A program made the translations under genes and the position numbers. Below, piece after piece: positions 17,162 through 48,534 of a DNA stretch of 64,000 bases (within the stretch, counting starts at the first letter, position 1; the number at the start of each line of letters is the position of its first letter). The DNA is from an uncultured cyanobacterium (lineage in GTDB: Bacteria > Cyanobacteriota > Cyanobacteriia > Pseudanabaenales > Pseudanabaenaceae): assembly GCA_963750795.1 (NCBI GenBank), contig CAVVRZ010000018.1, forward strand, positions 40,245 through 104,244. The letters run 5' to 3'. Below the pieces are notes generated by a model. The model searched no databases, had not been told where the DNA came from, and saw only the letters and a list, made by a program, of their open reading frames with translations.

Positions 17162-17205
17162 AAATACAATTTCGAGCAAAATCTTGAATTTAAGGAGCAA
17201 AACAA

Positions 17206-17667: not shown

Positions 17668-17690
17668 TCAAATAAGCAAAGGTAAAAACT

Positions 17691-30328: not shown

Positions 30329-30376
30329 CCCCAAAAGCAAAAAAACTCGCTAAGCGAGTTTTTTTTGCTTTTGGGG
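30329..30376. terminator. bidirectional hairpin between psb30 and the WD40 gene
   Basis: ccccaaaagcaaaaaaactcgc/gcgagttttttttgcttttgggg. Confidence 0.65.
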
Positions 30377-30403: not shown

Positions 30404-32617
30404 TCACTTAGTCTGATCGCAGCCAAGGGCAGGGACACGATTAGTTTTTTGACTGAGAATTTTCCCCTCAGCAGTTCCACTCAAGACCAAGATTTCTTTG
30501 GGGGTGAGATCAATATCAACAGCCGTAACGGGCGTATTAGAAGTGATCATAGTTTTGCCATTCAGTTCACCCGATGCCCTACGACCATTACTGGTTAATC
30601 CCCATAGCTTTACCTCACCATCGTCGCCACCGCTAACCAAATAACAACCTTGATTACTAAAAGCGATCGAGCGGACGGGTTTAGCCTTGTGAGCATCTTT
30701 CCATACTTCAACCAGTTGACAAGGCTGGCTCCCGACTTGACCGCTACTGTTGTTATTAGGTAAACAATTATTCAAGTTCCAGAGGGTGATGTAGCCTTGG
30801 TTGTCCGCAGTGGCGAGGAGATTGCGTTGGCGCTCGGGGACGCTGATACTTTGGATATAGTCGTCCTGTCCACCTGAGTTGGGATAGGTCAGAGTTTTGG
30901 TGGTGTCAGTAACCCAGTTCCAGAGGACTAGCTGGTTGTAACGCCCTGCGATCGCTAGGGTATTGTCATTATCATTGCCCACAAGAGCGATCGCATTGAT
31001 CGCAAAATCAAACTGCTTAGTTTGTCTAGGTTGCGTCGGCGGATTGGTAAATAAATTTTGTAAATCCCAACGCAGTAGTAAACCACTGCCATGACCGCTA
31101 AAGAGATTACGCGCATCAAGTGTATATTCCAGTCCAAAGACGCGATCGTCATTTTGATTACTAAAGGTCGCGATCGGGCGCTGGCTACCTTGGGTATTTA
31201 GGATTTGGATCTCACCATTTTCTAATCCTGCGGCGAGAAGATCATTATTAAAGGGGCGATAGCGGACGGTTCTAATGGCTTTTTGAGCTTCCGTCAATAC
31301 GCCTAGGTCATACTTCACAAACAGTGTGTGAAAACCTTCCACTTCCCAAGTGCGAATTGTGCGATCGTTAGAACTACTAACAGCGTGATTGCCAATGCCA
31401 TCGTACTGCACGGAGGTGACGGCTCCTTTGTGGGGTAAGAAAGGATTATTGGGATTAAATCCTAGCAATAACCCAAGAATAAACATCAAAATAAAGAAAA
31501 GAACTAATAACCACCAGATCGAAATAATTGGCTTAACAATCACTTCGATCGCTTGGATTTCATCTACGGTATTCACCCGCGTATCTTGCCAATTTGCCTT
31601 GATTAATAGCTCTAACTGCTGCTCTCTACCAAGCCAAGGTCTAGGCTTATCGATTTGCAAGATTAGTTCTGACTGACTAAAGGGGTTAACTGCTGACTCA
31701 TTGGGCAAAAACTCATAGCTAAAATCTTCAGTATTACTGGAATAGGCACTCTCTACTTCAAAACTAATCGTTTGATTTAAGTTACTAGCATTGACTGCCG
31801 TGAGATTAAAAATCGCAGGGGTATATCGCCAAAATTTCCACCATGTTTTCCACCAAGAGCGCCAAGGCTGTTGATTAGGAATAGTTTGTAGTTTTTCAGG
31901 ACAGCTAACCGACAACTCGCCTTTAGGTAATACTTCGAGATTGCACTGCAATTGCGAAGGCAGTCCATTGGTGTGGGAAACATTGATCGTAAAGGGATAG
32001 GTCTTAGCGATCGCCTCTTCATCAAAGGGTAGATTACATAAGAAGGAAGTACTAATCTGTGCGCCTGCTTTGAGCTGCAACTGTTGGATATGCCCATTGG
32101 GAAACCAAAATGGGGGCAAATCTACACAGGTGAGGGTGACATTAGTATTTTGTTGGCTAAGATTGCTGATTAAAACAGGGATTTCTAGATCATTAAGGGG
32201 GATTGCTTGTAGTTTTTGGGAAGGAACATTGACCTTGAGAATGGCACGGCTAGCTCCTTCCTGTAGGTTGACTCGCAAAATCTCCCGATTCTCTTCGCGT
32301 AGCTCCATCGAGAAGGCGCGTACCGTGATGTTCATGATGCCCATAAAACCAGCGATCGGTGGTTCAATGATCGAAACCATAAACTCCACCAGATCCCCTG
32401 GGGGAATCTTGACGCTGACATCGGGAGAGATCGTATACCATTCATAGGTAATGGCATCAGCATCAGCACCTGCGGCAATCAGCTCAATCTGAAAGCTAGA
32501 GAACTGATTACTCTCATTGACGACGATCACGGGAAAAGAATTACCCGCTTCACCAACTTTAAAATTTAACTCTTTCTTGGGGATTTCTAAACCAACATGA
32601 TTCGCGGGCATCGCCAT
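30404..32617 (-). CDS. membrane-anchored WD40-repeat protein (N-terminal Ig-like region, one TM helix, C-terminal beta-propeller)
   Basis: TM helix IISIWWLLVLFFILMFILGLLLGF at about aa 360. Downstream repeats include GHKGAVTSVQY..S.DRTIRTWEV and SGGDDGEVKLWGL. Starts 12 nt after the Cache-HAMP stop. Confidence 0.8.
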   Translation of the reverse strand: MAMPANHVGLEIPKKELNFKVGEAGNSFPVIVVNESNQFSSFQIELIAAGADADAITYEWYTISPDVSVKIPPGDLVEFMVSIIEPPIAGFMGIMNITVRAFSMELREENREILRVNLQEGASRAILKVNVPSQKLQAIPLNDLEIPVLISNLSQQNTNVTLTCVDLPPFWFPNGHIQQLQLKAGAQISTSFLCNLPFDEEAIAKTYPFTINVSHTNGLPSQLQCNLEVLPKGELSVSCPEKLQTIPNQQPWRSWWKTWWKFWRYTPAIFNLTAVNASNLNQTISFEVESAYSSNTEDFSYEFLPNESAVNPFSQSELILQIDKPRPWLGREQQLELLIKANWQDTRVNTVDEIQAIEVIVKPIISIWWLLVLFFILMFILGLLLGFNPNNPFLPHKGAVTSVQYDGIGNHAVSSSNDRTIRTWEVEGFHTLFVKYDLGVLTEAQKAIRTVRYRPFNNDLLAAGLENGEIQILNTQGSQRPIATFSNQNDDRVFGLEYTLDARNLFSGHGSGLLLRWDLQNLFTNPPTQPRQTKQFDFAINAIALVGNDNDNTLAIAGRYNQLVLWNWVTDTTKTLTYPNSGGQDDYIQSISVPERQRNLLATADNQGYITLWNLNNCLPNNNSSGQVGSQPCQLVEVWKDAHKAKPVRSIAFSNQGCYLVSGGDDGEVKLWGLTSNGRRASGELNGKTMITSNTPVTAVDIDLTPKEILVLSGTAEGKILSQKTNRVPALGCDQTK

Positions 32618-32629
32618 ATACTCCTGTAG

Positions 32630-34003
32630 TTATCTTTTCTCTCGCACAGCTCGTGAACGCTGCAAAATCAGTTGTAATGAGTTAGTTTGCCCCATTTGTG
32701 AAGCGATCGCTGCTTTTTTAGCCTCATCCTTCTCTAGGCGCAGCTTATGCAGTTGACTCAGCATTCCCTGTTGACGCTCGGCAATGGTATTACCCATTTC
32801 CTGAAAAACCCTTGCCATTTGTCCCAATTCATCTTGGCGAGTCGCAACATCCTGCAACTCTTCAGGATTAAAGGTTTCTTCCTCAATTTCTTTGGCGGCG
32901 TTCATTAGTTCTTTGATGGGCTTTAGTAACCATGAAGCGATCGCTAAGCCGATGATGATATTAACACCCAGCATAATGACGATGATGCCGATGGTTAGAC
33001 GGTTGTTTGCGTCAATTTCCTCCATAAAAACTGATTTTGGCACGATAATTCCCACCGACCAATCAGGCTGATCTTTATTGTCCAGTTTGTGGGTGCTTAC
33101 AAAGTAGGTTTCACCATTAGATTCAAATTCAAGAATTTGGGAATTTTCTAAATTCCCAAATCCACCAAACTTTTCTTGCACCAACTGTCCCACCTTCTGT
33201 AAGCGTGGATTGCCACTTTGAGACGCATCAAAGCGTTGTATGCTTTTACCATCTTTGAGAAATACAGGCTCATCGGCAGTGCTACCCACTAACTTCCCAT
33301 CGGATTCCACCAAAAATAAATGCCACTTATCTGTGGGGCGAATCTCCTGCATAAATTGCTTGATTTGCTTTAGAGAAATATTTACTCCCGCCACACCTTG
33401 AAATTCTCCCTTACTGTCGTAAATAGGAGTAGCTTTGGTAGTAGTCAGTTCGCCATCGGTGGTACTGACAAACACAGAAGTCCACACAGGCGCTCCTATC
33501 TCTTTTGCAGCTTTATACCAAGGGCGATCGCGATGGTCATAGATTTCATTCATTACAATTTTGCCACGTTCTCCCCGCTCATTTAGCTCGTAGGTCGGGC
33601 GGTTGGGCGCAGTAGTATTATCCCGAATTCGTAATAAAAGGCTAGAATCAGCAAGCCGATCAACCCCCACCATTGATCCATTTTTATTGCCAAAGAAGAG
33701 AATATTATTAACTTGAAGTTCTTGAGATTTGTTGAAAATATATTCCTGTACTTCGCTAATATTATCGGGGTTAATATTACCTTTATTCAGGGCAAAGGAT
33801 AGAGCTTGATTACTTTGAATAGAGCGATCAAGATAGGAACCTATTTGCTGTTCAACTCGATAATTTAGATTATCACAAAGTTGAGTAGTTAGCTTCTTAA
33901 TCGCTTTTTCGCTACTACTAAAGGAAATCCAACCTGTAACACCAACGGCAACGGCGATCTGAAGACTAAGAACTATGGGAAAGACTTGACGAATGGAAGA
34001 CAT
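32630..34003 (-). CDS. Cache-HAMP membrane sensor with no recognisable output domain
   Basis: N-terminal TM, dCache-like periplasmic region (WYKAAKE...PVWTSVFVS...TTTKATPIYD), second TM and HAMP (LLKPIKELMNAAKEI...LGQMARVFQEM). Only about 60 aa of coiled coil lie before the stop. Confidence 0.7.
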   Translation of the reverse strand: MSSIRQVFPIVLSLQIAVAVGVTGWISFSSSEKAIKKLTTQLCDNLNYRVEQQIGSYLDRSIQSNQALSFALNKGNINPDNISEVQEYIFNKSQELQVNNILFFGNKNGSMVGVDRLADSSLLLRIRDNTTAPNRPTYELNERGERGKIVMNEIYDHRDRPWYKAAKEIGAPVWTSVFVSTTDGELTTTKATPIYDSKGEFQGVAGVNISLKQIKQFMQEIRPTDKWHLFLVESDGKLVGSTADEPVFLKDGKSIQRFDASQSGNPRLQKVGQLVQEKFGGFGNLENSQILEFESNGETYFVSTHKLDNKDQPDWSVGIIVPKSVFMEEIDANNRLTIGIIVIMLGVNIIIGLAIASWLLKPIKELMNAAKEIEEETFNPEELQDVATRQDELGQMARVFQEMGNTIAERQQGMLSQLHKLRLEKDEAKKAAIASQMGQTNSLQLILQRSRAVREKR

Positions 34004-34026
34004 AATTAGATTAACCTCACAAAGAA

Positions 34027-34113
34027 ATCAAATAAAGTTCTCTATCTCTTTCATAGCTTCGGCTACGCTCAGCCACCAATATACGATAGCTGAGCGCAGT
34101 CAAAGCCTCTAGA
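34027..34113. mobile_element. MITE family 1 remnant abutting or overlapping the stop codon of the 487-aa gene
   Basis: cttcggctacgctcagccaccaatatacgatagctgagcgcagtcaaagcctctag. Confidence 0.55.
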
Positions 34114-35572
34114 TATACATATTGGTAATACGACGCTGCTCCTTGATCGGTTGATCACTGTTACTTGTGTACTGGGGATTGACCTGCATGGCTTGCATAA
34201 TTCGATGACGTTGGGCGGCATAGTTAAGGATGTTGATGCCCAATTCTTGACAAGTGCGAATACATTCTCTAGTGAGTAAGCGATCGCTCTGACCAGCCCA
34301 AATCGAAGATAGATTGCCTAATACAGTGATCACTCCATTGCTAGTTAGTACTTGTAAAGGTTGTTCGGCAAAGATAGGTAGTTGATGGAATAAGAATGGT
34401 TGACTGCGGAGTGGATGATCGTGATTTAGTTCAGCAAAAGATCGCATTGCCTTAATTTCGGGGATTAAGCTACTTAAGGAGTTAGTGAGTTCTTGGCGAT
34501 ACATATTTAATTCGGCAGCGATCGCTTCCAGCTCTTCTAATAACTGAGCCTGAATGATATCGGATTCATTGCCATCGTTAAAAGAGATATCTCCATTGAG
34601 CTTATTGAGGTGATTCTTCGTGTTGGTTTGGAGTTTGTGATGAGCATTTTGAAGTTCGTCATAAATAGAAAGTAAACTTTCAACTCTAGTATTGGCGATC
34701 GCCACTTCGATCAACAATAAGCCACCTGCTTTAACATATCTTTGTAGAGCGTCTTGGGTATTGACAGTGAGGCTAGAAATTTGACTCTCTTGGATGTGAA
34801 TTAATTGGTAATTAATTAATTTCTCAATAGTCAAGTCATCATTAATACTTAGTTGATCAATGACCGAAATATTAGCAAGCTGTGGAGTCATGCTCGCTGT
34901 AGCCTGTCCCAAGAAATCAAAACTCCGAGAGATATTATGCTCACTCTGATCGCTAGTCTGGTTATTAACACAACAGGCGATCGCTAGATTATATTCAGGT
35001 CTTAGCTTGATCGATAGGCGATGGCGCAAATCCAATTGCGAAATTTGCGGATGGATGATGTCAGTCGGTTGTTGAATCGCTAACTGTCCTTCCGCGATCG
35101 CCACACGACATAATTCAATATCTGTATCTAGAGGTGGATCGGTTTTTTCATTGATCCTGAAGGTTTCCACCAATATCTCATTATGTTCTGAACGCTTCAA
35201 CTTCGCAGGATCAACATAGCTGAGAACTAAATAGACCGTATCAATCCGTTGCTCATAGGCTGCGGTCGAGATCCGAAAATCAAGAGGCGATGGCACGACA
35301 ATAAAATTGCCATGCACATCAATCGCAATCCCCGGCTGAATCTGTACCCAACGATCATCCCGAAATTTTGCAGGCATATCCATCGGCGCAGTTATTGGCG
35401 CGACTCCCAAGCCGCAGACGATCCCGGGAGAGAATAGAGATTGATAGAGAACGTTTTGACGTTGATGGTGATAAGCATGGGCAAGCTGCCAACGTTCGCT
35501 ATTGATCATCAAGCCATCGGAGACTTGTAGCCGCTCAAAGGATTGAATTTCAGGATCGGGAAAGTTTTTCAT
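34109..35572 (-). CDS. CIS-associated 487-aa protein: N-terminal baseplate/fibre-associated-like domain fused to a DUF4159-like C-terminal domain
   Basis: N-terminal LAHAYHHQRQNVLYQSLFSPGIVCGLGV...IQPGIAIDVHGNFIVV. C-terminal YVKAGGLLLIE...LGNLSSIWAG...CQELGINILNYAAQR. Confidence 0.5.
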   Translation of the reverse strand: MKNFPDPEIQSFERLQVSDGLMINSERWQLAHAYHHQRQNVLYQSLFSPGIVCGLGVAPITAPMDMPAKFRDDRWVQIQPGIAIDVHGNFIVVPSPLDFRISTAAYEQRIDTVYLVLSYVDPAKLKRSEHNEILVETFRINEKTDPPLDTDIELCRVAIAEGQLAIQQPTDIIHPQISQLDLRHRLSIKLRPEYNLAIACCVNNQTSDQSEHNISRSFDFLGQATASMTPQLANISVIDQLSINDDLTIEKLINYQLIHIQESQISSLTVNTQDALQRYVKAGGLLLIEVAIANTRVESLLSIYDELQNAHHKLQTNTKNHLNKLNGDISFNDGNESDIIQAQLLEELEAIAAELNMYRQELTNSLSSLIPEIKAMRSFAELNHDHPLRSQPFLFHQLPIFAEQPLQVLTSNGVITVLGNLSSIWAGQSDRLLTRECIRTCQELGINILNYAAQRHRIMQAMQVNPQYTSNSDQPIKEQRRITNMYI

Positions 35573-35629
35573 GGATGATTTTTAAATCTGAGAATTTAAG
35601 TCTGAGAGTTTAAGTCTGAAGATTTTGGG

Positions 35630-36742
35630 CTAAATAATTTCCAAATCATAGGTACAAAAAGCAGGCTTCTCCCGTTCAATAATTTGATGAATTAGATCGG
35701 TATTGATCATGCTCGGCAAATCATTGCGAATACGGACAATGAAATGAAAAGGTCTGCCGCCACCCGCCGAAGCATCAACGCCTAATTGAGCTTCATTTAA
35801 GATGAATCCTCTACCTGTCACCTCAAAAATATCAATATGCTTTTGTCCCTCTGGTAAATGCTCATCTAGGGGTAAACCCGTAAATAGGTGAATGTAAAAA
35901 CGTAATCCCCTGCGAGTACCGCGCCAACGATAGATCTGCATTGCCTGCTTAATCAAATAGCGCTGCCGTTTAACATCTAGCAATGGTGACATTTCCCAAC
36001 CGACCCAATGGGCGAGAAACGGTAACATCGTCTCAGGCGCTAAGATTGGGTCAACATATGCCCAGAGTGCGTTAAAAATCTGGACATCAGGCTCAAGGGA
36101 TTCTTCAAAAATCTTTAGCAGTCGCCCCACAAAGTCAACTTCTCGGAAAATATCAGGTAAAAACCCTAGATAAAGGCTATGGGGACGAATATAGAGATGA
36201 ATAGGAGCAATGTCCAATAGTTCTAATTTTACCATTGGTGTTAAGACCTCAGAACTAGCACTGTTGCTACCCTCAAGTTTTGGAGTAGGGGTATCGGTCG
36301 GATCTGCGTAACCTCCGTATATATGCAGATGACCGTGGTAATTGATGGTTAAGGCTTGATCATGGGCGATCGCTTCTTGATTTTCAAAGAAGTCTATCGG
36401 CACTTGAAAATAGAGAACGGCTTCCATTTCACCATAGGCAGGAATGCGATCGCCTTCCATCCCAATCCGACACCACTGATTAGGAAAATCACCTTCTAAG
36501 CGCAAGTTAACAACTAGCGGTCGGGCATTAGTATTTTTGATTTTAACGATAATTTCACTAGGATCTCCAGGATTGATCAAAAGCTGGCAGGAACTGGCAG
36601 CCACATCCAACTCGGCAATCCCTCCATTGTCCCGCTTGTCCTTAGCTTGCTCAGCACTATTCAGACTCTGATCGGAGACATTGGGAGCCTTCATGGAGAT
36701 CAGTTGAATGCTAAGAGCTTGTAGCTTACTTGGGGAGGGCAT
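35630..36742 (-). CDS. baseplate protein with phage P2 gpI-like (tail protein I) domain
   Basis: LPDIFREVDFVGRLLKIFEE...LAPETMLPFLAHWVGW...KRQRYLIKQAMQIYRWRGTRRGL is the Tail_P2_I pattern. Starts 6 nt after the upstream stop. Confidence 0.7.
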   Translation of the reverse strand: MPSPSKLQALSIQLISMKAPNVSDQSLNSAEQAKDKRDNGGIAELDVAASSCQLLINPGDPSEIIVKIKNTNARPLVVNLRLEGDFPNQWCRIGMEGDRIPAYGEMEAVLYFQVPIDFFENQEAIAHDQALTINYHGHLHIYGGYADPTDTPTPKLEGSNSASSEVLTPMVKLELLDIAPIHLYIRPHSLYLGFLPDIFREVDFVGRLLKIFEESLEPDVQIFNALWAYVDPILAPETMLPFLAHWVGWEMSPLLDVKRQRYLIKQAMQIYRWRGTRRGLRFYIHLFTGLPLDEHLPEGQKHIDIFEVTGRGFILNEAQLGVDASAGGGRPFHFIVRIRNDLPSMINTDLIHQIIEREKPAFCTYDLEII

Positions 36743-36748
36743 AGAGAT

Positions 36749-39004: not shown

Positions 39005-39249
39005 TGCTGAATGCTCTGCTCGTTGCTTGGGTTTGAATAGTGATGCTGACTATAATCGAATTCTACTGGTTAGCGTCTTACTTTGTTACTGAAATACTAA
39101 ATTATTTAACCTAAATGACTACATTTGTCGAAAATATCGCAAACCATCAATAAGCGATCGCTATTTTCTACAGCAAAAGAAGCTTTTGGAGGTTTAGTTT
39201 GTACCAATAGCTCTTGCTTTGCCATATTTCAACATCAGTTCAATGAAAT

Positions 39250-39292
39250 CTCAAAGTGGTGAGAATCACAGAGCGATTTTCACCACTTTGAG
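39250..39292 (-). terminator. 13-bp stem hairpin between the tube/chaperone module and the baseplate module (terminator or attenuator)
   Basis: ctcaaagtggtga (17-nt loop) tcaccactttgag. On the minus strand it is followed by ATTT. Confidence 0.4.
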
Positions 39293-39324
39293 GCATTTGC
39301 ATAGAATTTTCCAATCCATAGAGT

Positions 39325-39642
39325 CTATTCAGTATTTACTTCCCAAGCCGTATCACCCAAATCATTAATCTGGCGATAAAACTTTTGCAAATAATTTAAG
39401 TCAGTGGCAAACATATTTTCGACGATCATTGTGCTGACCTCCTCCAGACCACCCAGCTTCGTAATTACCCTTGACAGGATTACTACCGTGGCATAGGCAG
39501 GATTTGCCCTCACCCTTGGATCGCGCATGGGAGTAATCTCATCGATCGCCCTAGACAAACGCATCACACCCTTACGATGTACATTGCCATCGCTATCGAC
39601 ATAGCCCTTAGGCAAAGTAAATTCAAACTGAGTTTGAATCAT
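39325..39642 (-). CDS. small phage-tail-associated protein, gpE-like tail assembly chaperone candidate
   Basis: 105 aa located 17 nt downstream of the third tube gene. FTLPKGYVDSDGNVHRKGVMRLSRAIDEI resembles tail assembly chaperone N-termini. Weak call. Confidence 0.4.
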   Translation of the reverse strand: MIQTQFEFTLPKGYVDSDGNVHRKGVMRLSRAIDEITPMRDPRVRANPAYATVVILSRVITKLGGLEEVSTMIVENMFATDLNYLQKFYRQINDLGDTAWEVNTE

Positions 39643-39659
39643 TGATCTCTATTTAATCC

Positions 39660-40157
39660 TTACTTAATCCTGAGAAAGTCTGTAACACTCAATTCTATTT
39701 CGATTACCGCAAATTCGCCAGTACCAGCCTTAAAGTCCGACAACTTATACCGAACGGGCCAAGCACCATTAAAGCGGAATCTTGCTTTTTCCGTTGCTGC
39801 TTGATCGTAAATAGTAATATCGCCATCACGCATTTGTTTTGACCAATTACCATCCTCGACTGCCTTTAGCCAATCCCAAAGGGTCATAGAAATCGTCAAA
39901 CCCTGCCGCAACACAATATTTTCACTCTTAACATTTCCCGGCAGCTTAGTACGTATAACACGCCCTTTACTAGAGTTGCTTCTACCCCATACTTGGGGAG
40001 TTACTTCCATAATCTCAATTACTTCTTGACTGCGGGTCAAGCCACTACATTCCATAAAGTAGCCATCAACCTGCTCTGTACTACCTTGTAAGGTAATCTC
40101 TATGTAAAAGCGGGAATTAGTTAAATATTCAAGTTGAGTGGCGCTGGCTGTCATCAC
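39660..40157 (-). CDS. phage tail tube-family protein (T4 gp19-like; tube initiator/Afp5-like candidate)
   Basis: SRFYIEI...GYFMECSGL...E...LPG..K..NIVLRQG...LWDW pattern of the gp19 family. Confidence 0.7.
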   Translation of the reverse strand: MMTASATQLEYLTNSRFYIEITLQGSTEQVDGYFMECSGLTRSQEVIEIMEVTPQVWGRSNSSKGRVIRTKLPGNVKSENIVLRQGLTISMTLWDWLKAVEDGNWSKQMRDGDITIYDQAATEKARFRFNGAWPVRYKLSDFKAGTGEFAVIEIELSVTDFLRIK

Positions 40158-40221
40158 AATTACCTTTATTTTTTGAAGTTAGGATATGAGAATCTTGGCT
40201 TCTCATATCCTAACTTCATGA

Positions 40222-40698
40222 CTACACCGCAACGCGATGCAAAGATTCATATACAAACTCAACAGTTTCTGTAGCAAGTCCCTCTGCACCTGCCTCTAGC
40301 TTGATGGATTTGTAACTAGATGGCATCATTCCCTTTACTTCCCATCTGGCGGCTTCTTCTCCGCCCTGATTGTAAAGACTAATTTTACCTGTGCGACGTA
40401 CACCCTTAGTTTTGGAACCTCCTCCGCCCAAAGGCTCAGTATGGGAGTCGCTGTACCATTGCATTAGCCTTTCATCCCCAGCTGTACAAACAAACTCCAC
40501 AGTAAGTTTGCCATTGGTGACACCTGTAACTGTAGCTTGGATTACAGATTTGGCAGCTTTAGAGACCCCATAGGATTTACTATCCCCTGCTGTTTGCAGA
40601 GTAGTACTAATGCCGCCAACACTTTTGATAATCAAATCAGCCAGTTGATCGATCTCAAAATAATACTTAGAACAGGCTAAAACTTCGCCAGCTGCCAT
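40222..40698 (-). CDS. phage tail tube protein (inner tube paralog 2)
   Basis: SKYYFEIDQL...IKSVGGIS. C-terminal ETVEFVYESLHRV parallels paralog 1. Confidence 0.7.
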   Translation of the reverse strand: MAAGEVLACSKYYFEIDQLADLIIKSVGGISTTLQTAGDSKSYGVSKAAKSVIQATVTGVTNGKLTVEFVCTAGDERLMQWYSDSHTEPLGGGGSKTKGVRRTGKISLYNQGGEEAARWEVKGMMPSSYKSIKLEAGAEGLATETVEFVYESLHRVAV

Positions 40699-40887
40699 AA
40701 TTGATTGACCTCAGAAATATTGATAGTAATACGTTAAGTTACGTATCTAATGAACCCAGATGCTTATACTAATTCACGAAAGTGTGTCAGCACTTTTGCA
40801 AGTTAAAAGACAAGCTTAGTAAAGCATTGACTAAAGACGAAATGTCTATGTCTCTATGTCACTAAAAGATAAAATTATCCTCTAGTG

Positions 40888-41361
40888 TTATACAGGGACG
40901 CGGTTAATCTGCTCAGCAATAATTTCAAATGTCTCGACTGCCAAATCTTTACTCTCAGAGTTAAAATCACTAACTTTGTAGCTTTTGATCCAGCAATTGA
41001 CGAGATTCCATCGGATTGCTTCTTTGTCTTCACTGGTGTAGGCGACGATGGAACCTGCTTTACGCCTTTGAGACCATAGCCCTTTGCCACCTTCACTCTT
41101 GGGCATAGTGTCCAACATCCAATTGTAAAAAGACATATCATCGGTTACATACACTTCGATAGTAACGTTGGGGTTCTCTTCAAAACCTGATGATGTACTT
41201 TGCCAAAGGGTTTTTCCACCTTTAGTAGAAGCAAGGGGCTTTTCATGCCCTGCTGTTTGTCCTGAGAAACTAACCTCAGATACACTCTTGATGAGTTTCT
41301 CTTCTAATCCCTCAAATGATACATAGTATCGACTAGTTGGAATTGGTATAAGTTCAGCCAT
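40888..41361 (-). CDS. phage tail tube protein (inner tube paralog 1, Afp1-like)
   Basis: SRYYVSFEGLEEKLIKSVSEVS...AVETFEIIAEQINRV. Located directly downstream of the sheath gene. Confidence 0.75.
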   Translation of the reverse strand: MAELIPIPTSRYYVSFEGLEEKLIKSVSEVSFSGQTAGHEKPLASTKGGKTLWQSTSSGFEENPNVTIEVYVTDDMSFYNWMLDTMPKSEGGKGLWSQRRKAGSIVAYTSEDKEAIRWNLVNCWIKSYKVSDFNSESKDLAVETFEIIAEQINRVPV

Positions 41362-41568
41362 TTTTTCTCCTTAAATTATAAGTTTTATGGGATTGTTTGA
41401 TTGGCTTTGGATTAGCTACTGCTGTTAAGCGATCGCATAGTTGCTTATTTTAAGAGATAAGACTGTAGGTCTAGATTTAGAACACCACAAATCTTAAGAA
41501 AGTGATAGGTTCCTTAAGAGAAAGGGTTTGAGAATCTTTTGATCCTCAAACCCTTAATGATAAGTCAA

Positions 41569-43284
41569 CTAGCTATTGGGAGACCACTGACTGACGCGGA
41601 AGATTACAAATTCCGCAGGACGGACGGGGCAGATACCAACTTCGATATATAAACGACCCATCATCATAGTTTCGTTAGTATTCAAAGTAGCGTCACACTT
41701 GACATAGAAGGCTTCAGTACTTGCGCCACCAAATAAAGCACCGTTGCGCCATAGTCCTTCGAGGAAGTTGCTGACGGTACGACTAACTCTTGCCCAGAGG
41801 TCGGTGTCATTGGGTTCAAAGACGACCCACTGCGTACCGATTTCAATGGACTTCTCAATGTAGCTAATTAAGCGGCGAACGCTGATATAACGCCATTGAA
41901 TGTTGTCTGGCTCAACGAGGGTGCGTGCGCCCCATACTTTGAAGCCGCGATTGTAGCTGGCAAAGTTACGGATGCAGTTAATGCCGATGGGGTTGAGCAG
42001 TTCTTGCTCACGCATATTGGTTTCGTAAGCGAGTCCAATCACACCTCTAGGGGTATCATTAGCTGGCGCTTTGAAAATGCCTCGGCTTTGGTCAGTGCGA
42101 CACCAGAGACCCATGACATGACCACAGGGTGGAACGTAGGAAGGTTTGCCACCTTTGCGGGGATTGGGAACCTTGATCCAAGGATAGTAAAGAGCGCCAT
42201 ACATGGAACGGCGGTTAAACATACTCAACCATTGGGCGACATCTTGAGGCTTTTGGCGATCGGGGCTGACGGCTTCCATACCCTTAGAAGGCTTAATTGG
42301 AGGCGGATCAATTACTGCCATCCGAAATGCAGGACCGGGGAAGGAGTTTTCGCACATACTGAGCATCATTTCCATGACTCCATGCACTTGATCGATGTCG
42401 ATCAGACCTGCTTCGTAGACACGCATCAAGTCTGGGCAAGCAATCATCGCAGTTTCGTCAATTTCAAACATCCCTTGGATGCCTGTGCGATCATCTCTTT
42501 GTCCTAGGAGATCACGGGAGAATCGCTCAATCGATGAAATATATGGAGGTGGAGCAATTTCGTAGGAGCCATTGGCGGGACGACGCGAGAGAGGCTGTCC
42601 ATTGGTGGAGATATCGGCAATGGTGATGTATTCTGAATCGGCGATCGCAGTAACCACATAGTCGGCAACTTCCGTCGCAACTTCGGGGTTCATCGATACA
42701 TATTCATATTTTTCTAATTCTTCACCGTCACGAGTCACGATCACGGTAAAGAATTCACCTGTATTTAAAGGCTCTTCAGCATCTTCAGGCGCATCTTCAG
42801 CTAGGGGCTTGGGAGTGCTTTCGCGGATTAAAACTTTAATGCGATCGCTACCACTACTGCTTGCCAATGCTAGTTGGCTTTCCGCAGCGTCAGCAGGCTT
42901 GATGTTAAACATCAAAGAAGGGCGATTGCTGGAAGTACCAATCCGCAAAGCTGTGGCTTCGGGAGGAGGTGGTGGAGACCCTGGTAATTGTGTGCCAATG
43001 CTAGTTACCCAACAGCGTCCACCACCATTGACGAACCAACCACTGACAGCAAAAGGCAAGTAAGCATCAAAATCTGTATATCCATCAGAACCGGGTGCGG
43101 CGAAATATTCACGGTATTGATCCCATGAAGTTACCATCATCGGTTTGAATAGCTCAGCATCACCACGTACATCTTCGGTGAAACCCACGAAACCCGCCAC
43201 ACTCATGCTGATGCCTTCGATGGGACGACTGCCTCTGTCAACCTCTTCGACGTACACACCCGGGGCGAAGTAGTCTAGTGCCAT
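41569..43284 (-). CDS. contractile tail sheath protein
   Basis: N-terminus MALDYFAPGVYVEEVDRGSRPIEG and C-terminal region YYPWIKV...FKAPAND...GINCIRNF...GFKVWGARTL are canonical sheath motifs. ATG at 43284 is preferred over 43314. Confidence 0.9.
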   Translation of the reverse strand: MALDYFAPGVYVEEVDRGSRPIEGISMSVAGFVGFTEDVRGDAELFKPMMVTSWDQYREYFAAPGSDGYTDFDAYLPFAVSGWFVNGGGRCWVTSIGTQLPGSPPPPPEATALRIGTSSNRPSLMFNIKPADAAESQLALASSSGSDRIKVLIRESTPKPLAEDAPEDAEEPLNTGEFFTVIVTRDGEELEKYEYVSMNPEVATEVADYVVTAIADSEYITIADISTNGQPLSRRPANGSYEIAPPPYISSIERFSRDLLGQRDDRTGIQGMFEIDETAMIACPDLMRVYEAGLIDIDQVHGVMEMMLSMCENSFPGPAFRMAVIDPPPIKPSKGMEAVSPDRQKPQDVAQWLSMFNRRSMYGALYYPWIKVPNPRKGGKPSYVPPCGHVMGLWCRTDQSRGIFKAPANDTPRGVIGLAYETNMREQELLNPIGINCIRNFASYNRGFKVWGARTLVEPDNIQWRYISVRRLISYIEKSIEIGTQWVVFEPNDTDLWARVSRTVSNFLEGLWRNGALFGGASTEAFYVKCDATLNTNETMMMGRLYIEVGICPVRPAEFVIFRVSQWSPNS

Positions 43285-43491
43285 ATGCCACCCTTTAACT
43301 ATGTCTATAGGCATATAGATTAGGTAAGATTAGTTAGAAGGGTTATTAGACTTTAGTCTATACTTCGATTAAAATCTAATTGCTAAAAAACGCTCAAGGT
43401 TAAGTCAAGTTTAAATACTAAGAATTAATTAAAAAAATGTTAACAAATGCAAACAATTACGGTCTATTGAGATTTTAAGTAGTAAACAGAG

Positions 43492-43530
43492 ATTCTTATA
43501 AATTTCGATGTAATCGGACTTTATAAGAAT
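43492..43530. promoter_or_regulatory. perfect 11-bp inverted repeat (ATTCTTATAAA-N17-TTTATAAGAAT) in the divergent CIS promoter region
   Basis: Read directly. Lies between the sheath start (43284) and the response regulator start (43682). Confidence 0.4.
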
Positions 43531-43681
43531 TTGTCTGGGTTTTAACCCAATGGCAAAGTGCCGTAACAGAGTCATCACATTCCGTTAAGGGCAAATAGTT
43601 TGTCCTTGTCTTTGTTAAGAAAAGTCTTGATTAATGTATCTCTGCAATTTCAATCGTTCAAAATGCTACACAGAATAGTCT

Positions 43682-44392
43682 ATGACGACAACAACTCAAA
43701 TAGTGTCGGTTTTGTTGGTAGAAAATGATCATAATTTTCGGAGGGGCTTACATACTTTATTAGGGTTTTATAGTGATGATTGCTATTTGCAGTTTAAGAT
43801 TGTTGGCGAGGCGACCTGTAGTGATCAAGCACTTAAATTAGTCCTCGAGCAGAAGCCCACTCTCATTCTTTTAGATGTGCAGTTGGATGTGCAGTTACCC
43901 CAAGATAGTGGATTCAAAGTATTAATGGATCTCAAAAAATTGGACTATCATGGCAAGGTGTTGATTTTATCAACACACCGTGATGACGAGTTGATTTTTC
44001 GGGCGATGCAGCTAGGGGCTAGGGGTTATGTGACTAAGGAAAAGATTGGAAGTCAACTCTATGAAGCAATTTCAACGGTGATGAATGAGGAAATATTTTT
44101 ACCTCCTGACATTGCTACTAGTTTTTTTCGGATTTTCCACTTCTATGCAGGGCGATCGCTACAATGTCAAAATCAAAGTCAAAATCAAATTCACTTGACC
44201 GATCGCGAACATGAAGTCTTACATTGGTTGATCAAAGGAGCTTCCAATGAACAGATTTCTGGGTATCTCCATGTGACGATCGCCACAGTCAAAGCCCATT
44301 TAACCAGTGTATTTGAGAAGTTGGGCGTAGTTAGCCGCACTCAGGCAATTGTGAAAGCATTGAAATTAGGTTTAGTTAATACCGATGAGTAG
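43682..44392 (+). CDS. NarL/LuxR-family response regulator (REC + LuxR HTH)
   Basis: VLLVENDH...LILLD...VLILSTH...YVTKE REC motifs. LTDREHEVLHWLIKGASNEQISGYLHVTIATVKAHLTSVFEKLGV is the LuxR HTH. Confidence 0.85.
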   Translation: MTTTTQIVSVLLVENDHNFRRGLHTLLGFYSDDCYLQFKIVGEATCSDQALKLVLEQKPTLILLDVQLDVQLPQDSGFKVLMDLKKLDYHGKVLILSTHRDDELIFRAMQLGARGYVTKEKIGSQLYEAISTVMNEEIFLPPDIATSFFRIFHFYAGRSLQCQNQSQNQIHLTDREHEVLHWLIKGASNEQISGYLHVTIATVKAHLTSVFEKLGVVSRTQAIVKALKLGLVNTDE

Positions 44393-44407
44393 TGATGAGT
44401 AGTACCG

Positions 44408-45685
44408 ATGAGTAATTATTTAGCGATCGCCACAGTTACGGCAACTCTCCAAAGGGTATTACAAACAGTCTTGCAACAGGATATCGAAGGCGCGAGGGTG
44501 ACTACTTTGCCCCCTGCGAATATTTCGTCAGGAGCGCCTGAAGTGGGTGTGAATATCTACTTGTATCAGGTGGCAAGCAACCCTGCTTTGGCAAACTATG
44601 ACTCTACCCCCAATCGCACTAAAGGTAATCCCCTTAATCGTCAAGTGGCGATCGATCTCTACTACATGATGAGTTGCTACGGCAATGATGTCGAGCTGCA
44701 ACCCCAGCGAGTTTTGGGAAGTATCGTCAGTACGCTAGCAGACAAGCGCATTCTCACTCCCGATTTGATTCGTTCCACTTGTAATGACTCGACATTGCCA
44801 TTTTTAATAGATTCTGATCTGGCGGATCAGATTCAGCTTGTGACGATTGTCCCCGTGGATATTACCTTGGAGGATCTTTCCAAAACTTGGTCAGTCTATC
44901 AAGCCCCCTACGTTCTATCAATCGCTTACCGTGCTTGTTTGGTCGTGATTGAAGGAAGGGAAAACTTCCAAAGGGCATTACCAATTCGTGATACCTCTCC
45001 TGCGGGGATTACACCCTTTAGTAATGCTCCTTACATAGAACAGATAATGGTGCAGGGCAGTCGCTTTGAACAGATTACGATTGGTAGCACTCTAGTGATT
45101 CGGGGCAGAAACTTACTCAATCAAGTCGATACTAGCAATGATGCCGTCCAAATTCAAATTGGAGACTTGACGGTTACTCCCACAGAAATCAAAGATCGGG
45201 AAATCATCTTCTCTTTGGAAGCAACGCCTTTGCCAATGCTCCAAGCGGGAGTGCAGAGTTTGCAGGTTATCCATCGCATGGCGAGTACTTCACCACTAAT
45301 TACCAACGCGATCGCTTCTAATCTAATGGCATTGGTTCTCTGTCCGACCCTAGTCGAAATTCAGGTGCATGATGTGGAAGAGATTGAAGAGGATCTACGA
45401 TCTGCGATCGTCACAGTACATTTAGATGTACTAGTGAGAGAAAAGCAAAAAGTAATCTTGGCACTGAATGAATGGACTCTGAATGATCCACAGGTATATA
45501 TGTTCGATCGCCCACCATTACCTAGCACTAGCTCTGTCATTGATATTCCGATCACCAATGTTAAAGCGGGAGAATATCTGGTTAGGATTAGAGTAGATGG
45601 CGCAGAGAGTAAGTTGGGAATTGATGAAAACCCCGATAGCTCCACCTATAACTGGTACAACAGTCCAAAATTGATCATTCCTTAA
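44408..45685 (+). CDS. DUF4255 (Pvc16/Afp16 N-terminal, tail cap/terminator-like) protein with about 230-aa C-terminal extension
   Basis: MSNYLAIATVTATLQRVLQTVLQ...VNIYLYQV matches the DUF4255 N-terminus. 15 nt downstream of the response regulator. Confidence 0.7.
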   Translation: MSNYLAIATVTATLQRVLQTVLQQDIEGARVTTLPPANISSGAPEVGVNIYLYQVASNPALANYDSTPNRTKGNPLNRQVAIDLYYMMSCYGNDVELQPQRVLGSIVSTLADKRILTPDLIRSTCNDSTLPFLIDSDLADQIQLVTIVPVDITLEDLSKTWSVYQAPYVLSIAYRACLVVIEGRENFQRALPIRDTSPAGITPFSNAPYIEQIMVQGSRFEQITIGSTLVIRGRNLLNQVDTSNDAVQIQIGDLTVTPTEIKDREIIFSLEATPLPMLQAGVQSLQVIHRMASTSPLITNAIASNLMALVLCPTLVEIQVHDVEEIEEDLRSAIVTVHLDVLVREKQKVILALNEWTLNDPQVYMFDRPPLPSTSSVIDIPITNVKAGEYLVRIRVDGAESKLGIDENPDSSTYNWYNSPKLIIP

Positions 45686-45736
45686 AACCAAAGGATAGGT
45701 GGCGGCGCAAAGCGCCGCCACCTATCCTTTGGTTTT
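45684..45736. terminator. 25-bp perfect-stem hairpin overlapping the DUF4255 stop codon
   Basis: aaaaccaaaggataggtggcggcgc aaa gcgccgccacctatcctttggtttt. Confidence 0.7.
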
Positions 45737-47684: not shown

Positions 47685-48086
47685 TTATGGAAACAAACCC
47701 AAACGAATCCATAGTTTTCGAGCAGCTACTTGAGCAGCGCTATTCATCTTTAAATTTTCCACAGTCACCTTTCCAACGGCAGTAATTCCCATAACCATGC
47801 CAGCCTCCGTATCGCTCTGAAAATGTTCACCCCACAAATTCTGTCTTGGATGAAAAAATTGAACTTTACTGTTTGAATCATTGTCAATGCCGCTAATACG
47901 AGTGCCTTTACGAAGATTGCAGGATCGACAGGCAAGAGCTAGATTCGACTCGTCATTTGTCCCTTGCTGGGAGAGAGGGATGATATATTCAACCTCAAAA
48001 GGGAAGTTAAAAACCAATTCTGGAGCATGGCAGTATTCGCAACGATAATTAGCGCGTTCTGCGATCGCACTATAATAGGGATTCAT
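47685..48086 (-). CDS. HNH endonuclease-family protein with Tyr in place of the first catalytic His
   Basis: CEYCHAP...FEVEYIIPLSQQGTNDESNLALACRSCNLRKG. The canonical sequence is (D/E)HIIP. Confidence 0.7.
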   Translation of the reverse strand: MNPYYSAIAERANYRCEYCHAPELVFNFPFEVEYIIPLSQQGTNDESNLALACRSCNLRKGTRISGIDNDSNSKVQFFHPRQNLWGEHFQSDTEAGMVMGITAVGKVTVENLKMNSAAQVAARKLWIRLGLFP

Positions 48087-48094
48087 ATACTTAG

Positions 48095-48445: not shown

Positions 48446-48498
48446 ACCCCTAACCTGAAGATCTTTTGCTACCTCACATTATAGCTTTGAGATATCTT

Positions 48499-48534
48499 AC
48501 GATCGCCTCAATGATCTATCTATTTGCTAAATGC
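48499..48534 (+). repeat. third direct copy of the GATCGC...ATCTATCT...CTAAA motif, upstream of the HNH cassette
   Basis: acgatcgcctcaatgatctatctatttgctaaatgc. Confidence 0.65.

Follow-up and report, generated by a model that had tools for sequence, protein, structure and literature searches.

The contractile injection system (CIS) of Streptomyces coelicolor/venezuelae (CIS-Sc; PDB 8BKY, 8BL4, 9GTP) provides the best solved homologues for the sheath, the tube, Cis11 and part of Cis12 of the locus analyzed here. Like this locus, it has a single Afp11-type gene, belongs to a multicellular filamentous host and encodes a bitopic membrane protein directly 3' of the baseplate genes (CisA there, a TM-WD40 protein here). 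The thylakoid-anchored CIS (tCIS) of Anabaena sp. PCC 7120 (PDB 7B5H), for which a role in stress-induced cell death was proposed, shares a cyanobacterial host, membrane association through cluster-encoded proteins and, at the fibre position, a protein whose N-terminal baseplate-binding domain is Cis13-like. In the haloarchaeal T6SS-like CIS (Halogeometricum borinquense, PDB 9EZM) a cluster-associated membrane protein likewise correlates with the mode of action, but the host is archaeal, toxin-immunity pairs are known and the six-TM anchor has an unrelated architecture. Loci of type IId were catalogued in filamentous cyanobacteria (PMC6899500, PMC10020575); dbeCIS (Chen et al., 2019) lists them, for example in Calothrix NIES-4101, and Vladimirov et al. 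(2023) mention them again. These loci are probably of the same family as the one described here. In the literature searched, no description of WD40, DUF4159, Cache or regulator companions of IId loci was found, and querying full texts for 'contractile injection system' together with 'WD40' returned nothing relevant.

Overall organization of the locus

The window, a 64-kb stretch of DNA from a Pseudanabaena-type cyanobacterium, contains a chromosomally resident, phage-tail-like CIS locus in which three of a system's four operon-sized modules are present. These are a regulator-cap unit (LuxR-type response regulator and Cis16), a module of sheath, three tube proteins and assembly chaperone, and a wedge/periphery operon (Cis11, Cis12, a TssK/Cis13-like DUF4159 protein, a dCache-HAMP sensor and an Ig3-TM-WD40 protein). 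All 12 ORFs, ten on the minus strand and two in the divergent unit, are intact and were confirmed at the coordinates previously given. Compared with CIS-Sc, the locus differs in the last three of these accessory proteins (the Cache sensor in Pseudanabaena), in the regulator and conserved palindrome linked to the sheath operon, and in the dispersal of its genes over operon modules, with spike, gp25 and ATPase genes lacking from the window. We consider it probable (about 0.72) that the locus is a resident Streptomyces-like CIS that is linked to a membrane and a sensor and has its hub/spike module elsewhere in the genome.

Sheath, tube and wedge proteins point to the Streptomyces lineage

The sheath, tube and chaperone module consists of the following genes.

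41569..43284, minus strand: contractile sheath (Cis2), 571 aa (Pfam PF04984, E 2e-12; PF17482, E 9e-18)
40888..41361, minus strand: inner tube protein A (Cis1-like), 157 aa (PF06841, 3e-20; TIGR02241)
40222..40698, minus strand: inner tube protein B, paralogue, 158 aa (PF06841, 7e-18)
39660..40157, minus strand: third gp19-type tube protein, 165 aa (PF06841, 2e-29), nearest to Cis5-type tube adaptor/initiator
39325..39642, minus strand: tail-assembly-chaperone-like protein, 105 aa (PHROG 508 'tail assembly chaperone', E 1.8e-5)

The sheath start at 43284 was upheld; the close relative L003 has no counterpart of the ATG that lies further upstream, at 43314. Sheath homologues are found across cyanobacteria with 72-97% identity. 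Among solved structures, the Streptomyces sheath ranks first (8bky/9gtp, E 5e-106, residues 4-569) and the haloarchaeal sheath 9ezm third (E 6e-84), whereas the tCIS sheath All3325 matches the C-terminus only (E 1.8e-45). Tube protein A is likewise closest to the Streptomyces tube (8bl4_v/9gtp). For the third tube protein the best equivalog-type match is NCBIfam CIS5_fam, but with 44 bits against a cutoff of 260. The 105-aa protein had no match in Pfam, NCBIfam or PDB and is 72% identical to a 100-aa gene product that follows the tube genes in locus L004.

The wedge/periphery operon starts with three components, of which p487 is treated further below.

36749..39004, minus strand: Cis11/Afp11 baseplate wedge (gp6/Baseplate_J), 751 aa (TIGR02243, 599 bits against a cutoff of 156)
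35630..36742, minus strand: Cis12/Afp12 wedge, 370 aa (Tail_P2_I / TIGR02242, 9e-31)
34109..35572, minus strand: p487, fibre-position baseplate-periphery protein, 487 aa (TssK/Cis13-like N-terminal domain, DUF4159, helical hairpin)

Cis11 has its best solved match in Streptomyces CIS chain 9gtp_1K (E 6e-111) and 2920 homologues at E<=1e-20, with 55-77% identity in Pseudanabaena, Nostocales and others; like the sheath, it aligns with its Streptomyces counterpart along most or all of its length. Cis12 carries an N-terminal extension of ~190 aa, and its residues 193-290 match the 190-aa chain 9gtp_E, presumably the Cis12 of the Streptomyces CIS.

Best matches and published notes on IId, rather than a phylogeny, thus suggest that the locus belongs to the lineage of cytoplasmic CIS known from Streptomyces (published type IId), which is widespread among filamentous cyanobacteria. 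The preliminary description had seen the signature of Afp/PVC/MAC-type or thylakoid-anchored systems and had been unable to name a described subtype; both statements give way to this placement. Profile-HMM searches found the sheath, tube, baseplate, P2-I and Pvc16 families that it had named. Membership in the Anabaena-type tCIS, to which the filamentous cyanobacterial host and the weakly Cis13-like N-terminus of p487 could point, is very improbable. The NCBIfam CIS1/5/12/13 equivalog models scored 20-44 bits against cutoffs of 220-860, the sheath likeness is C-terminal only, no Cis19 crown gene was identified here, and p487 lacks the TM helix that anchors tCIS through its Cis13; the anchor here would be the separate TM-WD40 protein. 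Thylakoid localisation via this protein is possible but would be convergent.

A resident locus distinct from prophage tails

Phage tails have homologues of the sheath, tube, baseplate-J, P2-I and chaperone genes, as would be expected for a prophage tail module or an R-type tailocin released through lysis. This reading is effectively refuted. Pfam searches of nearly every ORF of 100 aa or more in the 64-kb window detected no capsid or other head, portal, terminase, integrase or lysis (holin, endolysin) families, a Pvc16/DUF4255 cap is present, and phage sheaths are distant, the best one having 36.5% identity over 58% of the query and a search of IMG/VR yielding no close phage relative. Moreover, sheaths from many cyanobacterial genera share 72-82% identity with the one here. 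HIP1 occurs 116 times in the window, with about 0.5 sites expected from base composition, and the 22 sites in the locus (1.44/kb vs 1.81/kb window-wide) match the density of the genome. Because of this density and the housekeeping flanks, the locus is regarded as chromosomally resident, as had been concluded before along with the exclusion of a prophage.

The missing spike/hub block suggests dispersal of modules

Genes for VgrG, PAAR/DUF4280, gp25, a Cis7-type tube initiator, a tape-measure-like giant protein, DUF6760 and an AAA+ ATPase are absent from the 64-kb window, and tblastn of the window with the relatives' proteins (E<=10) gave no match to the missing spike, hub or ATPase genes. Therefore, the locus alone cannot build a particle, and of the earlier claim of a CIS signature the CIS type stands while the complete machine does not. 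In relatives, a fourth module (tube-like protein, giant tape-measure-like protein, Cis7-like initiator, VgrG, PAAR, gp25) sits between the chaperone gene and cis11, where a gap of 320 nt is found here.

39005..39324, minus strand: chaperone-cis11 junction, position of the spike/hub block in relatives
30339..30365, unstranded: bidirectional terminator-like hairpin just 3' of the WD40 gene, operon end

Alignment with L003 revealed a window-specific insert of ~213 nt in the junction, with a long hairpin at 39250-39292 whose arms are unique in the window; the junction folds with -79 kcal/mol (z -3.1). About 105 nt 5' of cis11 (about 39005-39110) are conserved in eight Pseudanabaena loci and include a promoter-like site, GTAACA-18-TAGAAT, at 39089-39060. 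Given this conservation, Cis11-to-WD40 appears to be a separate transcription unit.

The canonical order giant-Cis7like-VgrG-PAAR-gp25-Cis11-Cis12-p487-(Cache)-WD40 is found in Pseudanabaena and Nostocales loci, some of them split or truncated. Calothrix sp. 336/3 (L050) carries the gene set as one contiguous system. In P. biceps PCC 7429, giant-Cis7-VgrG-PAAR and gp25-x-Cis11...WD40 lie on different scaffolds, each with housekeeping flanks; the sheath module is solitary in two other genomes, and in a MAG contig (L009) no cis11 lies within the roughly 600 nt that follow giant-Cis7-VgrG-DUF4280-gp25. L003, a second lineage, has the same chaperone-to-cis11 junction, and dN/dS against it is 0.002-0.05 at dS 0.4-1.4 (sheath 0.026; tube protein B 0.011; tube protein A 100% identical in amino acids at dS 1.2), indicating strong purifying selection since the junction arose.

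The shared junction, the low dN/dS, the scatter in P. biceps and the conserved cis11 upstream region together suggest modular dispersal, not decay, and the missing module and the AAA+ ATPase are likely to be located elsewhere in the genome. Alternatively, the central 13-14 kb of an ancestral, contiguous CIS (spike, PAAR, gp25, initiator, tape measure) would have disappeared together with the ATPase, and what is left would be non-functional or in the course of being lost. Although hub/spike genes occur nowhere in the 64 kb, the junction carries window-specific insertions and cis16 is not followed by an ATPase gene as in L049 and L050, such a remnant is quite unlikely: 12 of 12 ORFs are intact under the selection described, at dS up to 1.4, the cis11 upstream region and the sheath palindrome (below) are both conserved, and module dispersal is normal within the clade. 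The CIS here may still be non-functional or only partly functional. Context-based screens would overlook or shorten split loci like the dispersed one proposed here.

A response regulator and a conserved palindrome accompany the sheath operon

The divergent unit and the region upstream of the sheath gene contain the following elements.

43682..44392, plus strand: NarL/LuxR-type response regulator, first gene of the divergent two-gene unit (REC, Response_reg 1e-17; HTH, GerE 8e-18)
44408..45685, plus strand: Cis16/Afp16-type cap (tail terminator; Pvc16_N, E 2.6e-37; IPT/TIG-like domain, TIG 8e-5)
45687..45733, plus strand: strong terminator-like hairpin closing the regulator-cis16 unit (20-bp stem, 12-13 G-C pairs)
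43342..43360, unstranded: conserved palindromic element TAGACTAAAGTCTAATAAC, 63 nt 5' of the sheath ATG

Cis16 starts 15 nt past the regulator gene, and the cap is 91% identical to that of L003 (dN/dS 0.045). A regulator homologue adjoins the sheath module in L003, L004, L047 and L049, with a histidine kinase adjacent to it in L004 and L047. The palindrome was found 5' of the first sheath-operon gene in five regulator-carrying lineages (the window, L003, L049, L004/L005 and L047), and the two sheath loci without the regulator (L048, L050) also lack the palindrome. This co-occurrence makes the palindrome a candidate operator at which the adjacent regulator would act, or else a promoter element; as numbers are small (five with both, two with neither), such a promoter element may have nothing to do with the regulator.

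p487 and the TM-WD40 protein as putative membrane adaptors

The operon ends with two membrane proteins.

32630..34003, minus strand: membrane sensor (TM1, extracytoplasmic dCache_1, TM2, HAMP, short coiled-coil tail)
30404..32617, minus strand: bitopic TM-WD40 protein, 737 aa (Pfam WD40), last gene of the baseplate operon

No hydrophobic or TM segment was found in p487. Its N-terminus matches NCBIfam CIS13_fam (2.7e-9, far below the model cutoff), followed by Pfam DUF4159, and its 66 homologues are cyanobacterial. The AF2 model (pLDDT 86) shows a long helical hairpin besides the ThuA/GATase1-like DUF4159 domain. Foldseek retrieved ThuA-like 1t0b (probability 0.99), the tCIS baseplate chains 7b5h_AA/AC and, for the N-terminal half, TssK (probability about 0.9), the T6SS protein that links baseplate to membrane complex; the TssK/Cis13 likeness comes with weak E-values of about 1e-3. 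Unlike TssK, p487 has a C-terminal ThuA/DUF4159 domain, and sequence homology between the two is not detectable. No other T6SS components are present, in line with the earlier view that the locus is not a T6SS.

The Cache sensor has no output domain by Pfam, as had been described, and its TM segments lie at about 6-29 and 333-363. In the TM-WD40 protein, modelled by AF2 with pLDDT 91, three Ig-like beta-sandwich domains (residues 1-362, with a Trp/Lys-rich loop around 250-275) precede a TM helix (367-386) and a 7-bladed propeller (400-726; TM-score 0.85-0.87). The predicted topology would place a canonical propeller outside the cytoplasm, which is unusual.

In the proposed working, an unlinked kinase would phosphorylate the response regulator, which would act at the palindrome and set expression, and particles would form in the cytoplasm around a hub provided in trans. 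The TssK/Cis13-like p487 on the baseplate rim would bind the TM-WD40 protein at its cytoplasmic Ig-like domains and so dock the baseplate to the cytoplasmic or thylakoid membrane, by analogy with CisA of Streptomyces, the TM-bearing Cis13 of Anabaena and the haloarchaeal anchor. In Pseudanabaena, the co-encoded sensor would couple an extracytoplasmic signal to docking or firing. By analogy with the closest studied relatives, stress may trigger self-lysis or a regulated death of cells within the filament as the output; injection on contact is also possible.

A membrane-anchored contact-dependent weapon in a T6SS-like mode, as in haloarchaea, would depart from this explanation in the output step only: TM-WD40 protein and Cache sensor would anchor it at the cytoplasmic membrane for signal-triggered outward firing at neighbours or grazers. 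The rank of 9ezm among sheath matches and the two operon-encoded membrane proteins with large extracytoplasmic domains favour it. It is nonetheless unlikely, as cytoplasmic Streptomyces systems are the closest relatives by sequence, neither toxin-immunity pairs nor effector genes (e.g. DUF4157/eCIS_core) were seen in the 64-kb window, and firing would have to pass the cyanobacterial outer membrane and peptidoglycan.

Conservation of the signalling companions

In 27 other loci, too, the baseplate operon closes with the WD40 gene. The Cache gene occupies the same position in 12/12 other Pseudanabaena-type loci and in 0/15 loci of Nostocales and other genera. By gene content, the sensor is a Pseudanabaena-specific addition and the TM-WD40 protein a widely conserved accessory. 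Together with regulator and palindrome in five lineages, this indicates that the signalling link is real, and that signalling and scaffold genes are conserved CIS companions, not chance neighbours. The signal-controlled variant suggested earlier is therefore borne out in its companions, while the membrane-adaptor and sensor-gating mechanism is one we infer. The N-domain family of the TM-WD40 protein comprises 212 representatives, with WD40 in 10/10 sampled, and one WD40 protein variant has fused HisKA and REC domains.

Gene content and lineage of the locus

The ten co-oriented minus-strand ORFs reported in the preliminary description (43284/43314 down to 30404) and the divergent pair on the opposite strand (43682-44392 and 44408-45685) were reproduced in the ORF listing, and profile searches upheld the product assigned to each ORF. 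The sheath start chosen there, 43284, is the conserved one; the close relative L003 has no upstream ATG.

Genes of the contractile injection system (CIS) locus: position in the window, strand, product and family matches
41569-43284, minus: sheath; PF04984 and PF17482
minus: three gp19-type tube proteins; PF06841, all three above gathering scores, the third nearest to Cis5-type adaptors
39325-39642, minus: tail assembly chaperone-like protein, 105 aa (p105); PHROG 508, E 1.8e-5
36749-39004, minus: baseplate protein Cis11, 751 aa; TIGR02243, 599 bits vs cutoff 156
35630-36742, minus: wedge protein Cis12, 370 aa; Tail_P2_I / TIGR02242, 107 bits vs 52
34109-35572, minus: two-domain protein p487, 487 aa; N-terminus weakly NCBIfam CIS13 (E 2.7e-9), DUF4159 in the middle
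32630-34003, minus: sensor; dCache_1 and HAMP, without output domain
30404-32617, minus: membrane WD40 protein (TM-WD40), 737 aa; single hydrophobic helix, then WD40 repeats
43682-44392, plus: response regulator (LuxR-type); REC and GerE
44408-45685, plus: cap (cis16); Pvc16_N, E 2.6e-37, and TIG

The profile searches thus returned the components by which the eCIS/CIS superfamily is recognized, namely a sheath, a gp19-type tube, Afp11-type and Afp12-type proteins and an Afp16/Pvc16 (DUF4255) cap, and we infer that the locus belongs to such a system. PDB sequence searches with p105, Cis16 and p487 yielded no useful match. A prophage or R-type tailocin was rejected, as no head, terminase, integrase, replication or lysis family was found among the window ORFs with Pfam and the flanks are housekeeping genes; the remaining genes of the window encode Ffh, NadA, NdhD, HemA, iPGM, aspartokinase, signal peptidases and the like. 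The best phage sheath was 36.5% identical across 58% of the query, and no close relative of the sheath was found in IMG/VR. A T6SS was rejected as well, since TssB/TssC, TssM/TssL and ClpV were absent from the Pfam matches of the window ORFs. The core of the initial reading, a CIS with signalling genes attached that is neither prophage nor T6SS, was therefore correct. HIP1 sites occur within the locus genes, as had been claimed (22 sites, 1.44/kb), at a density comparable to that of the whole window (116 sites, 1.81/kb, vs about 0.5 expected).

The host is a relative of Pseudanabaena, its Cis11 being 73-77% identical to those of Pseudanabaena spp. The preliminary description could not match the locus to a described subtype, but its best matches place it in a described lineage, that of the cytoplasmic CIS of Streptomyces (CIS-Sc, type IId). 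When compared with all PDB sequences, sheath residues 4-569 aligned end to end with the CIS sheaths of S. coelicolor and S. venezuelae (8BKY/9GTP, E 5e-106; 8BL4, 2e-103), followed by the sheath of the haloarchaeal T6SS-like system (9EZM, 6e-84). Cis11 matched the CIS-Sc baseplate protein (E 6e-111), the CIS-Sc tube was the best match of tube A, and the C-terminal half of Cis12 matched the 190-aa chain 9gtp_E of a CIS-Sc entry, presumably CIS-Sc Cis12. Taken together, the best matches of sheath and Afp11 homologue argue strongly for the type IId/CIS-Sc lineage. Type IId is characterized by a single afp11 gene and an uninterrupted VgrG ORF (Chen et al. 2019); the first trait is shared here, with one Cis11 gene, and the second is seen in homologous loci of relatives, where VgrG is a single ORF of 625-653 aa. 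CIS-Sc is itself type IId, and IId loci of filamentous cyanobacteria are already known from dbeCIS and from Vladimirov et al. (PMC6899500, PMC10020575). The core machine thus probably belongs to a catalogued, experimentally unstudied cyanobacterial branch of a known lineage. Type IId/CIS-Sc is known as free-floating cytoplasmic particles that act in stress-induced cell death.

The thylakoid-anchored CIS of Anabaena (tCIS) was considered as an alternative identity and rejected. The NCBIfam CIS1/CIS5/CIS12/CIS13 equivalogs missed widely (20-44 bits vs cutoffs of 220-860), and the sheaths of tCIS (All3325), Pvc2-4, Afp2-4 and AlgoCIS matched in the C-terminal domain only, at 1e-45 or weaker. In contrast to tCIS Cis13, which has a C-terminal transmembrane helix, p487 has no hydrophobic segment, and DUF4159 and helical domains are found in its model. 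In addition, no unassigned ORF in the locus is of a size fitting the tCIS crown protein Cis19. Some relatives encode a short Pvc16_N protein of 174-182 aa (L004 9448-9972, L047 9394-9942). The L004 locus has a long (442 aa, 1696-3024) plus a short form, a pair reminiscent of the bipartite cap (Cis16A/B) in Anabaena tCIS; only the long form is encoded in the window.

The spike and hub genes are absent from the window

The CIS signature described earlier holds for sheath, tube, baseplate and cap, but not for a complete machine. VgrG, PAAR/DUF4280, gp25, a Cis7-type (PF19266) initiator, a tape-measure-like protein, DUF6760 and an AAA+ ATPase were all absent from the 64 kb in Pfam searches, and no AAA family that could represent an Afp15-type ATPase was found among the scanned window ORFs. 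The spike/hub genes occur in the homologous loci of relatives, and with these proteins as queries no tblastn match was obtained in the whole 64-kb window even at E<=10. The locus by itself is incomplete. Elsewhere, the gene order is a giant protein of 2,400-2,500 aa, CIS_tube, VgrG, PAAR/DUF4280, gp25, Cis11, Cis12, a DUF4159 protein of ~490 aa, dCache-HAMP and TM-WD40. This order covers most of the twelve other Pseudanabaena-type loci (that of P. biceps is split) and, without the Cache gene, fifteen loci of Nostocales and other genera. In Calothrix sp. 336/3 (L050) the whole system is contiguous, with cis16, a 75-aa gene and an AAA ATPase in a first arm and the sheath, three tubes, chaperone-like genes, DUF6760, a tube-like gene and the giant protein onward in the divergent arm; an AAA+ ATPase gene likewise adjoins cis16 in L048 and L049. 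Compared with the Calothrix arrangement, precisely the central block is gone from the window, where 320 nt separate the chaperone gene from cis11. The giant protein (L001 1-6203, L002 1-6488, L050 15525-21713, L009 1-1334) has ~46-aa repeats and the position of a tape measure; it is much longer than known CIS tape measures, and conservation is confined to ~250 C-terminal residues.

Decay of the system would be one explanation for the absent block, dispersal of its operons another. The metagenomic relative L003 (protein identity 97% for the sheath and 92% for Cis11, about 83-93% at the nucleotide level) shares the chaperone-to-cis11 junction with the window, and in the comparison of the two dN/dS was 0.002-0.051 at dS 0.38-1.41 for every gene compared. 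Every compared gene has been under strong purifying selection since the shared junction arose. Moreover, scattering of modules is normal for this clade: in P. biceps PCC 7429, giant-Cis7-VgrG-PAAR occupies one scaffold, with ribBA and further housekeeping genes after it, and gp25, a 397-aa gene and Cis11 through WD40 lie on a separate scaffold, and a stand-alone sheath-tube module is found in two further genomes. About 105 nt 5' of cis11, including a promoter-like site, are kept in 8/8 aligned Pseudanabaena-type loci (the window among them), so that Cis11-to-WD40 seems to form a transcription unit of its own, with the rearrangement breakpoints between operons. These comparisons argue that the central block was dispersed and did not decay. 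L009, a 5.3-kb MAG contig, carries giant-Cis7-VgrG-DUF4280-gp25 followed by ~600 nt without cis11, the layout expected of the missing module; its VgrG is <=81% identical to every other, comparable to the Cis11 of the window, which is also an outlier. CIS genes in these genomes are dispersed as operon modules; locus-based catalogues would undercount or mis-score such systems, and a single locus is unfit to judge completeness.

Relative to L003, the window carries two inserts. The first (~213 nt, 39111-39324) follows the chaperone gene at the junction and bears a 13+6-bp hairpin, and the second (~150 nt, about 43440-43590) lies in the regulator-sheath intergenic region. A repeated mobile element was ruled out for the hairpin, since its arms occur just once in the window. 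In Pseudanabaena sp. ABRG5-3 the baseplate module (L002) is located on a small secondary replicon or plasmid-sized record (AP017564.1, 125,503 bp), and a homologous module is borne by a megaplasmid of Kovacikia minuta (P0120); the system family is thus not always chromosomal.

Accessory proteins of the baseplate operon

The signalling companions named in the preliminary description are genuine, and the Cache sensor proved to be a genus-level addition: the dCache-HAMP gene was present in 12/12 other Pseudanabaena-type loci and in 0/15 loci of Nostocales and other genera. The TM-WD40 gene is the last of the baseplate operon in 27/27 other distinct loci that reach far enough downstream, and its homologues in Nostocales and Jaaginema are 33-42% identical over the full length. 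The accessory genes are real companions of the CIS. In phmmer searches, TM-WD40 residues 1-405 defined a family with 212 representatives (50% clustering), almost all of them 700-800 aa long. A C-terminal WD40 domain was found in 10/10 sampled members, and N-domain, TM and WD40 was the only such architecture among them. One of the ten, P0313 (1043 aa), has HisKA and REC (receiver) domains fused N-terminally, a fusion that ties the family directly to two-component signalling.

The AlphaFold2 model of the TM-WD40 protein (pLDDT 91) contains three Ig-like beta-sandwiches (1-362), one part of which has a Trp/Lys-rich loop, a TM helix (367-386) and a seven-bladed propeller. Foldseek matches of the full model were dominated by the propeller and uninformative on the Ig-like domains. 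With CisA (SCO4242) the protein shares position and topology as an analogy, nothing further being claimed, and Sco4256-58 are of comparable architecture, in which an N-domain and a TM segment are combined with a variable C-domain. For p487, 66 cyanobacterial homologues were obtained at E<=1e-10. Its model (pLDDT 86, pTM 0.86) includes a long helical hairpin, and the protein lacks TM segments; the N-terminal half resembles TssK and baseplate chains of Anabaena tCIS, and the DUF4159 part resembles ThuA-like GATase1 folds, both with weak E-values.

A candidate operator upstream of the sheath operon

A LuxR-type regulator gene adjoins the sheath module in the window, L003, L004, L047 and L049, in L004 and L047 together with a histidine kinase gene. 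A conserved palindromic element, T(A/C)GAC(T/C)(A/T)AAGTCTAATAA(C/A), was detected 63-155 nt 5' of the first gene of the sheath operon (window 43342-43360; L003 3324; L049 7338; L004 9374; L047 9320). It is present in exactly the five lineages with the LuxR-type regulator and absent in both sheath loci without it. This makes the palindrome TAGACTAAAGTCTAATAAC a candidate operator of the regulator. Four Nostocales loci (L019 6752, L021 5831, L029 4845, L035 4224) have a related motif, TAGACTTTTGGCTAAT, ~240 nt 5' of the tube-like gene with which the spike/baseplate module begins, a hint that the dispersed modules may form a single regulon.

A proposed mode of action

In the proposed mode of action, the LuxR-type regulator, co-transcribed with the cap gene, would be phosphorylated by an unlinked kinase and regulate sheath and tube expression from the palindrome, which lies in the 367-nt intergenic region between the divergent units; in this way it would probably coordinate the dispersed operons. 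The components of the hub, namely Cis7-like, VgrG, PAAR, gp25 and the tape-measure-like protein, would come in trans, Cis11 and Cis12 would form the wedges, and the TssK/Cis13-like p487 may take the fibre position on the baseplate rim. Lacking a signal peptide, the Ig-like domains of the TM-WD40 protein are expected to be cytoplasmic; by binding the rim they could hold the baseplate at a membrane, with the WD40 propeller and, in Pseudanabaena, the dCache domain on its far side. A comparable pattern is known from the TM-bearing Cis13 of Anabaena (PMC8894136) and, in haloarchaeal systems, from a six-TM anchor (PMC11566945). If CIS-Sc and tCIS are taken as a guide, the output would likely be stress-triggered lysis or regulated cell death within the filament; the main alternative is outward, contact-dependent firing. 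The full reading is of a sensor-gated CIS, in which the dCache-HAMP receptor and the Ig3-TM-WD40 protein dock the baseplate via the TssK/Cis13-like DUF4159 protein, only ligand binding licenses firing, and a dedicated LuxR-type regulator with its own operator coordinates the scattered operons. We give this combination a probability of roughly one in five. If true, sensor gating would couple a receptor directly to a phage-tail baseplate, and CIS control of this kind has not been described for eCIS, T6SS, tCIS or CIS-Sc.

No paper linking CIS and WD40 was found in the literature search, and CIS-associated WD40, DUF4159 and Cache proteins, the pairing of regulator and palindrome and the operon-modular dispersal appear to be undescribed in the literature searched. 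In every recently studied case, membrane docking and firing control of a non-canonical CIS hinged on a membrane protein encoded in the cluster (CisA in Streptomyces 2025, the haloarchaeal anchor 2024, Anabaena tCIS 2022). The present family offers a conserved, architecturally distinct candidate adaptor, Ig3-TM-WD40, and, judging from the model of p487, a putative TssK-like connector; in addition, the Pseudanabaena baseplate operon holds a bona fide ligand-sensing receptor, and the regulator has a recognisable candidate operator. Docking, triggering and regulation are directly testable in culturable carriers, including Pseudanabaena sp. ABRG5-3 and a number of strains of Nostoc and Anabaena, and the family may bear on regulated cell death in bloom-forming filamentous cyanobacteria.

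Other observations in the window and in relatives

In L004, from a 7.25-Mb cyanobacterial genome, a 1,174-aa NB-ARC-WD40 STAND NTPase (5734-9258) lies between the kinase/regulator/cis16 unit and the sheath operon, a further cell-death-type signalling protein beside a CIS. In the window, an HNH endonuclease (133 aa), the product of an unassigned 116-aa ORF and a 499-aa DUF6119 protein are encoded at 47685-50325, coinciding with the lowest GC of the window (0.356 at 48-50 kb); this stretch may be a small defence or mobile island beside the CIS locus. A defence/toxin-antitoxin-like cluster interleaved with ffh is located at 13637-18335 and comprises a 2TM effector-domain protein of the DUF4231/SLATT type, DUF5615 next to a small ORF, two nucleases of the Uma2 family and DUF29. 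At 4550-12718, ~20-35 kb from the locus, a signalling neighbourhood encodes a 717-aa histidine kinase with a phosphonate-binding domain and PAS, a TPM-domain protein and an 803-aa protein that combines three receiver domains with GGDEF and an OmpR-type DNA-binding domain. No specific link of the 717-aa kinase to the CIS regulator was found, its likeness to the L004 kinase being limited to the ATPase domain. Finally, signal peptidase I is encoded twice at 62585-63986, by paralogous genes in tandem (236 and 191 aa).
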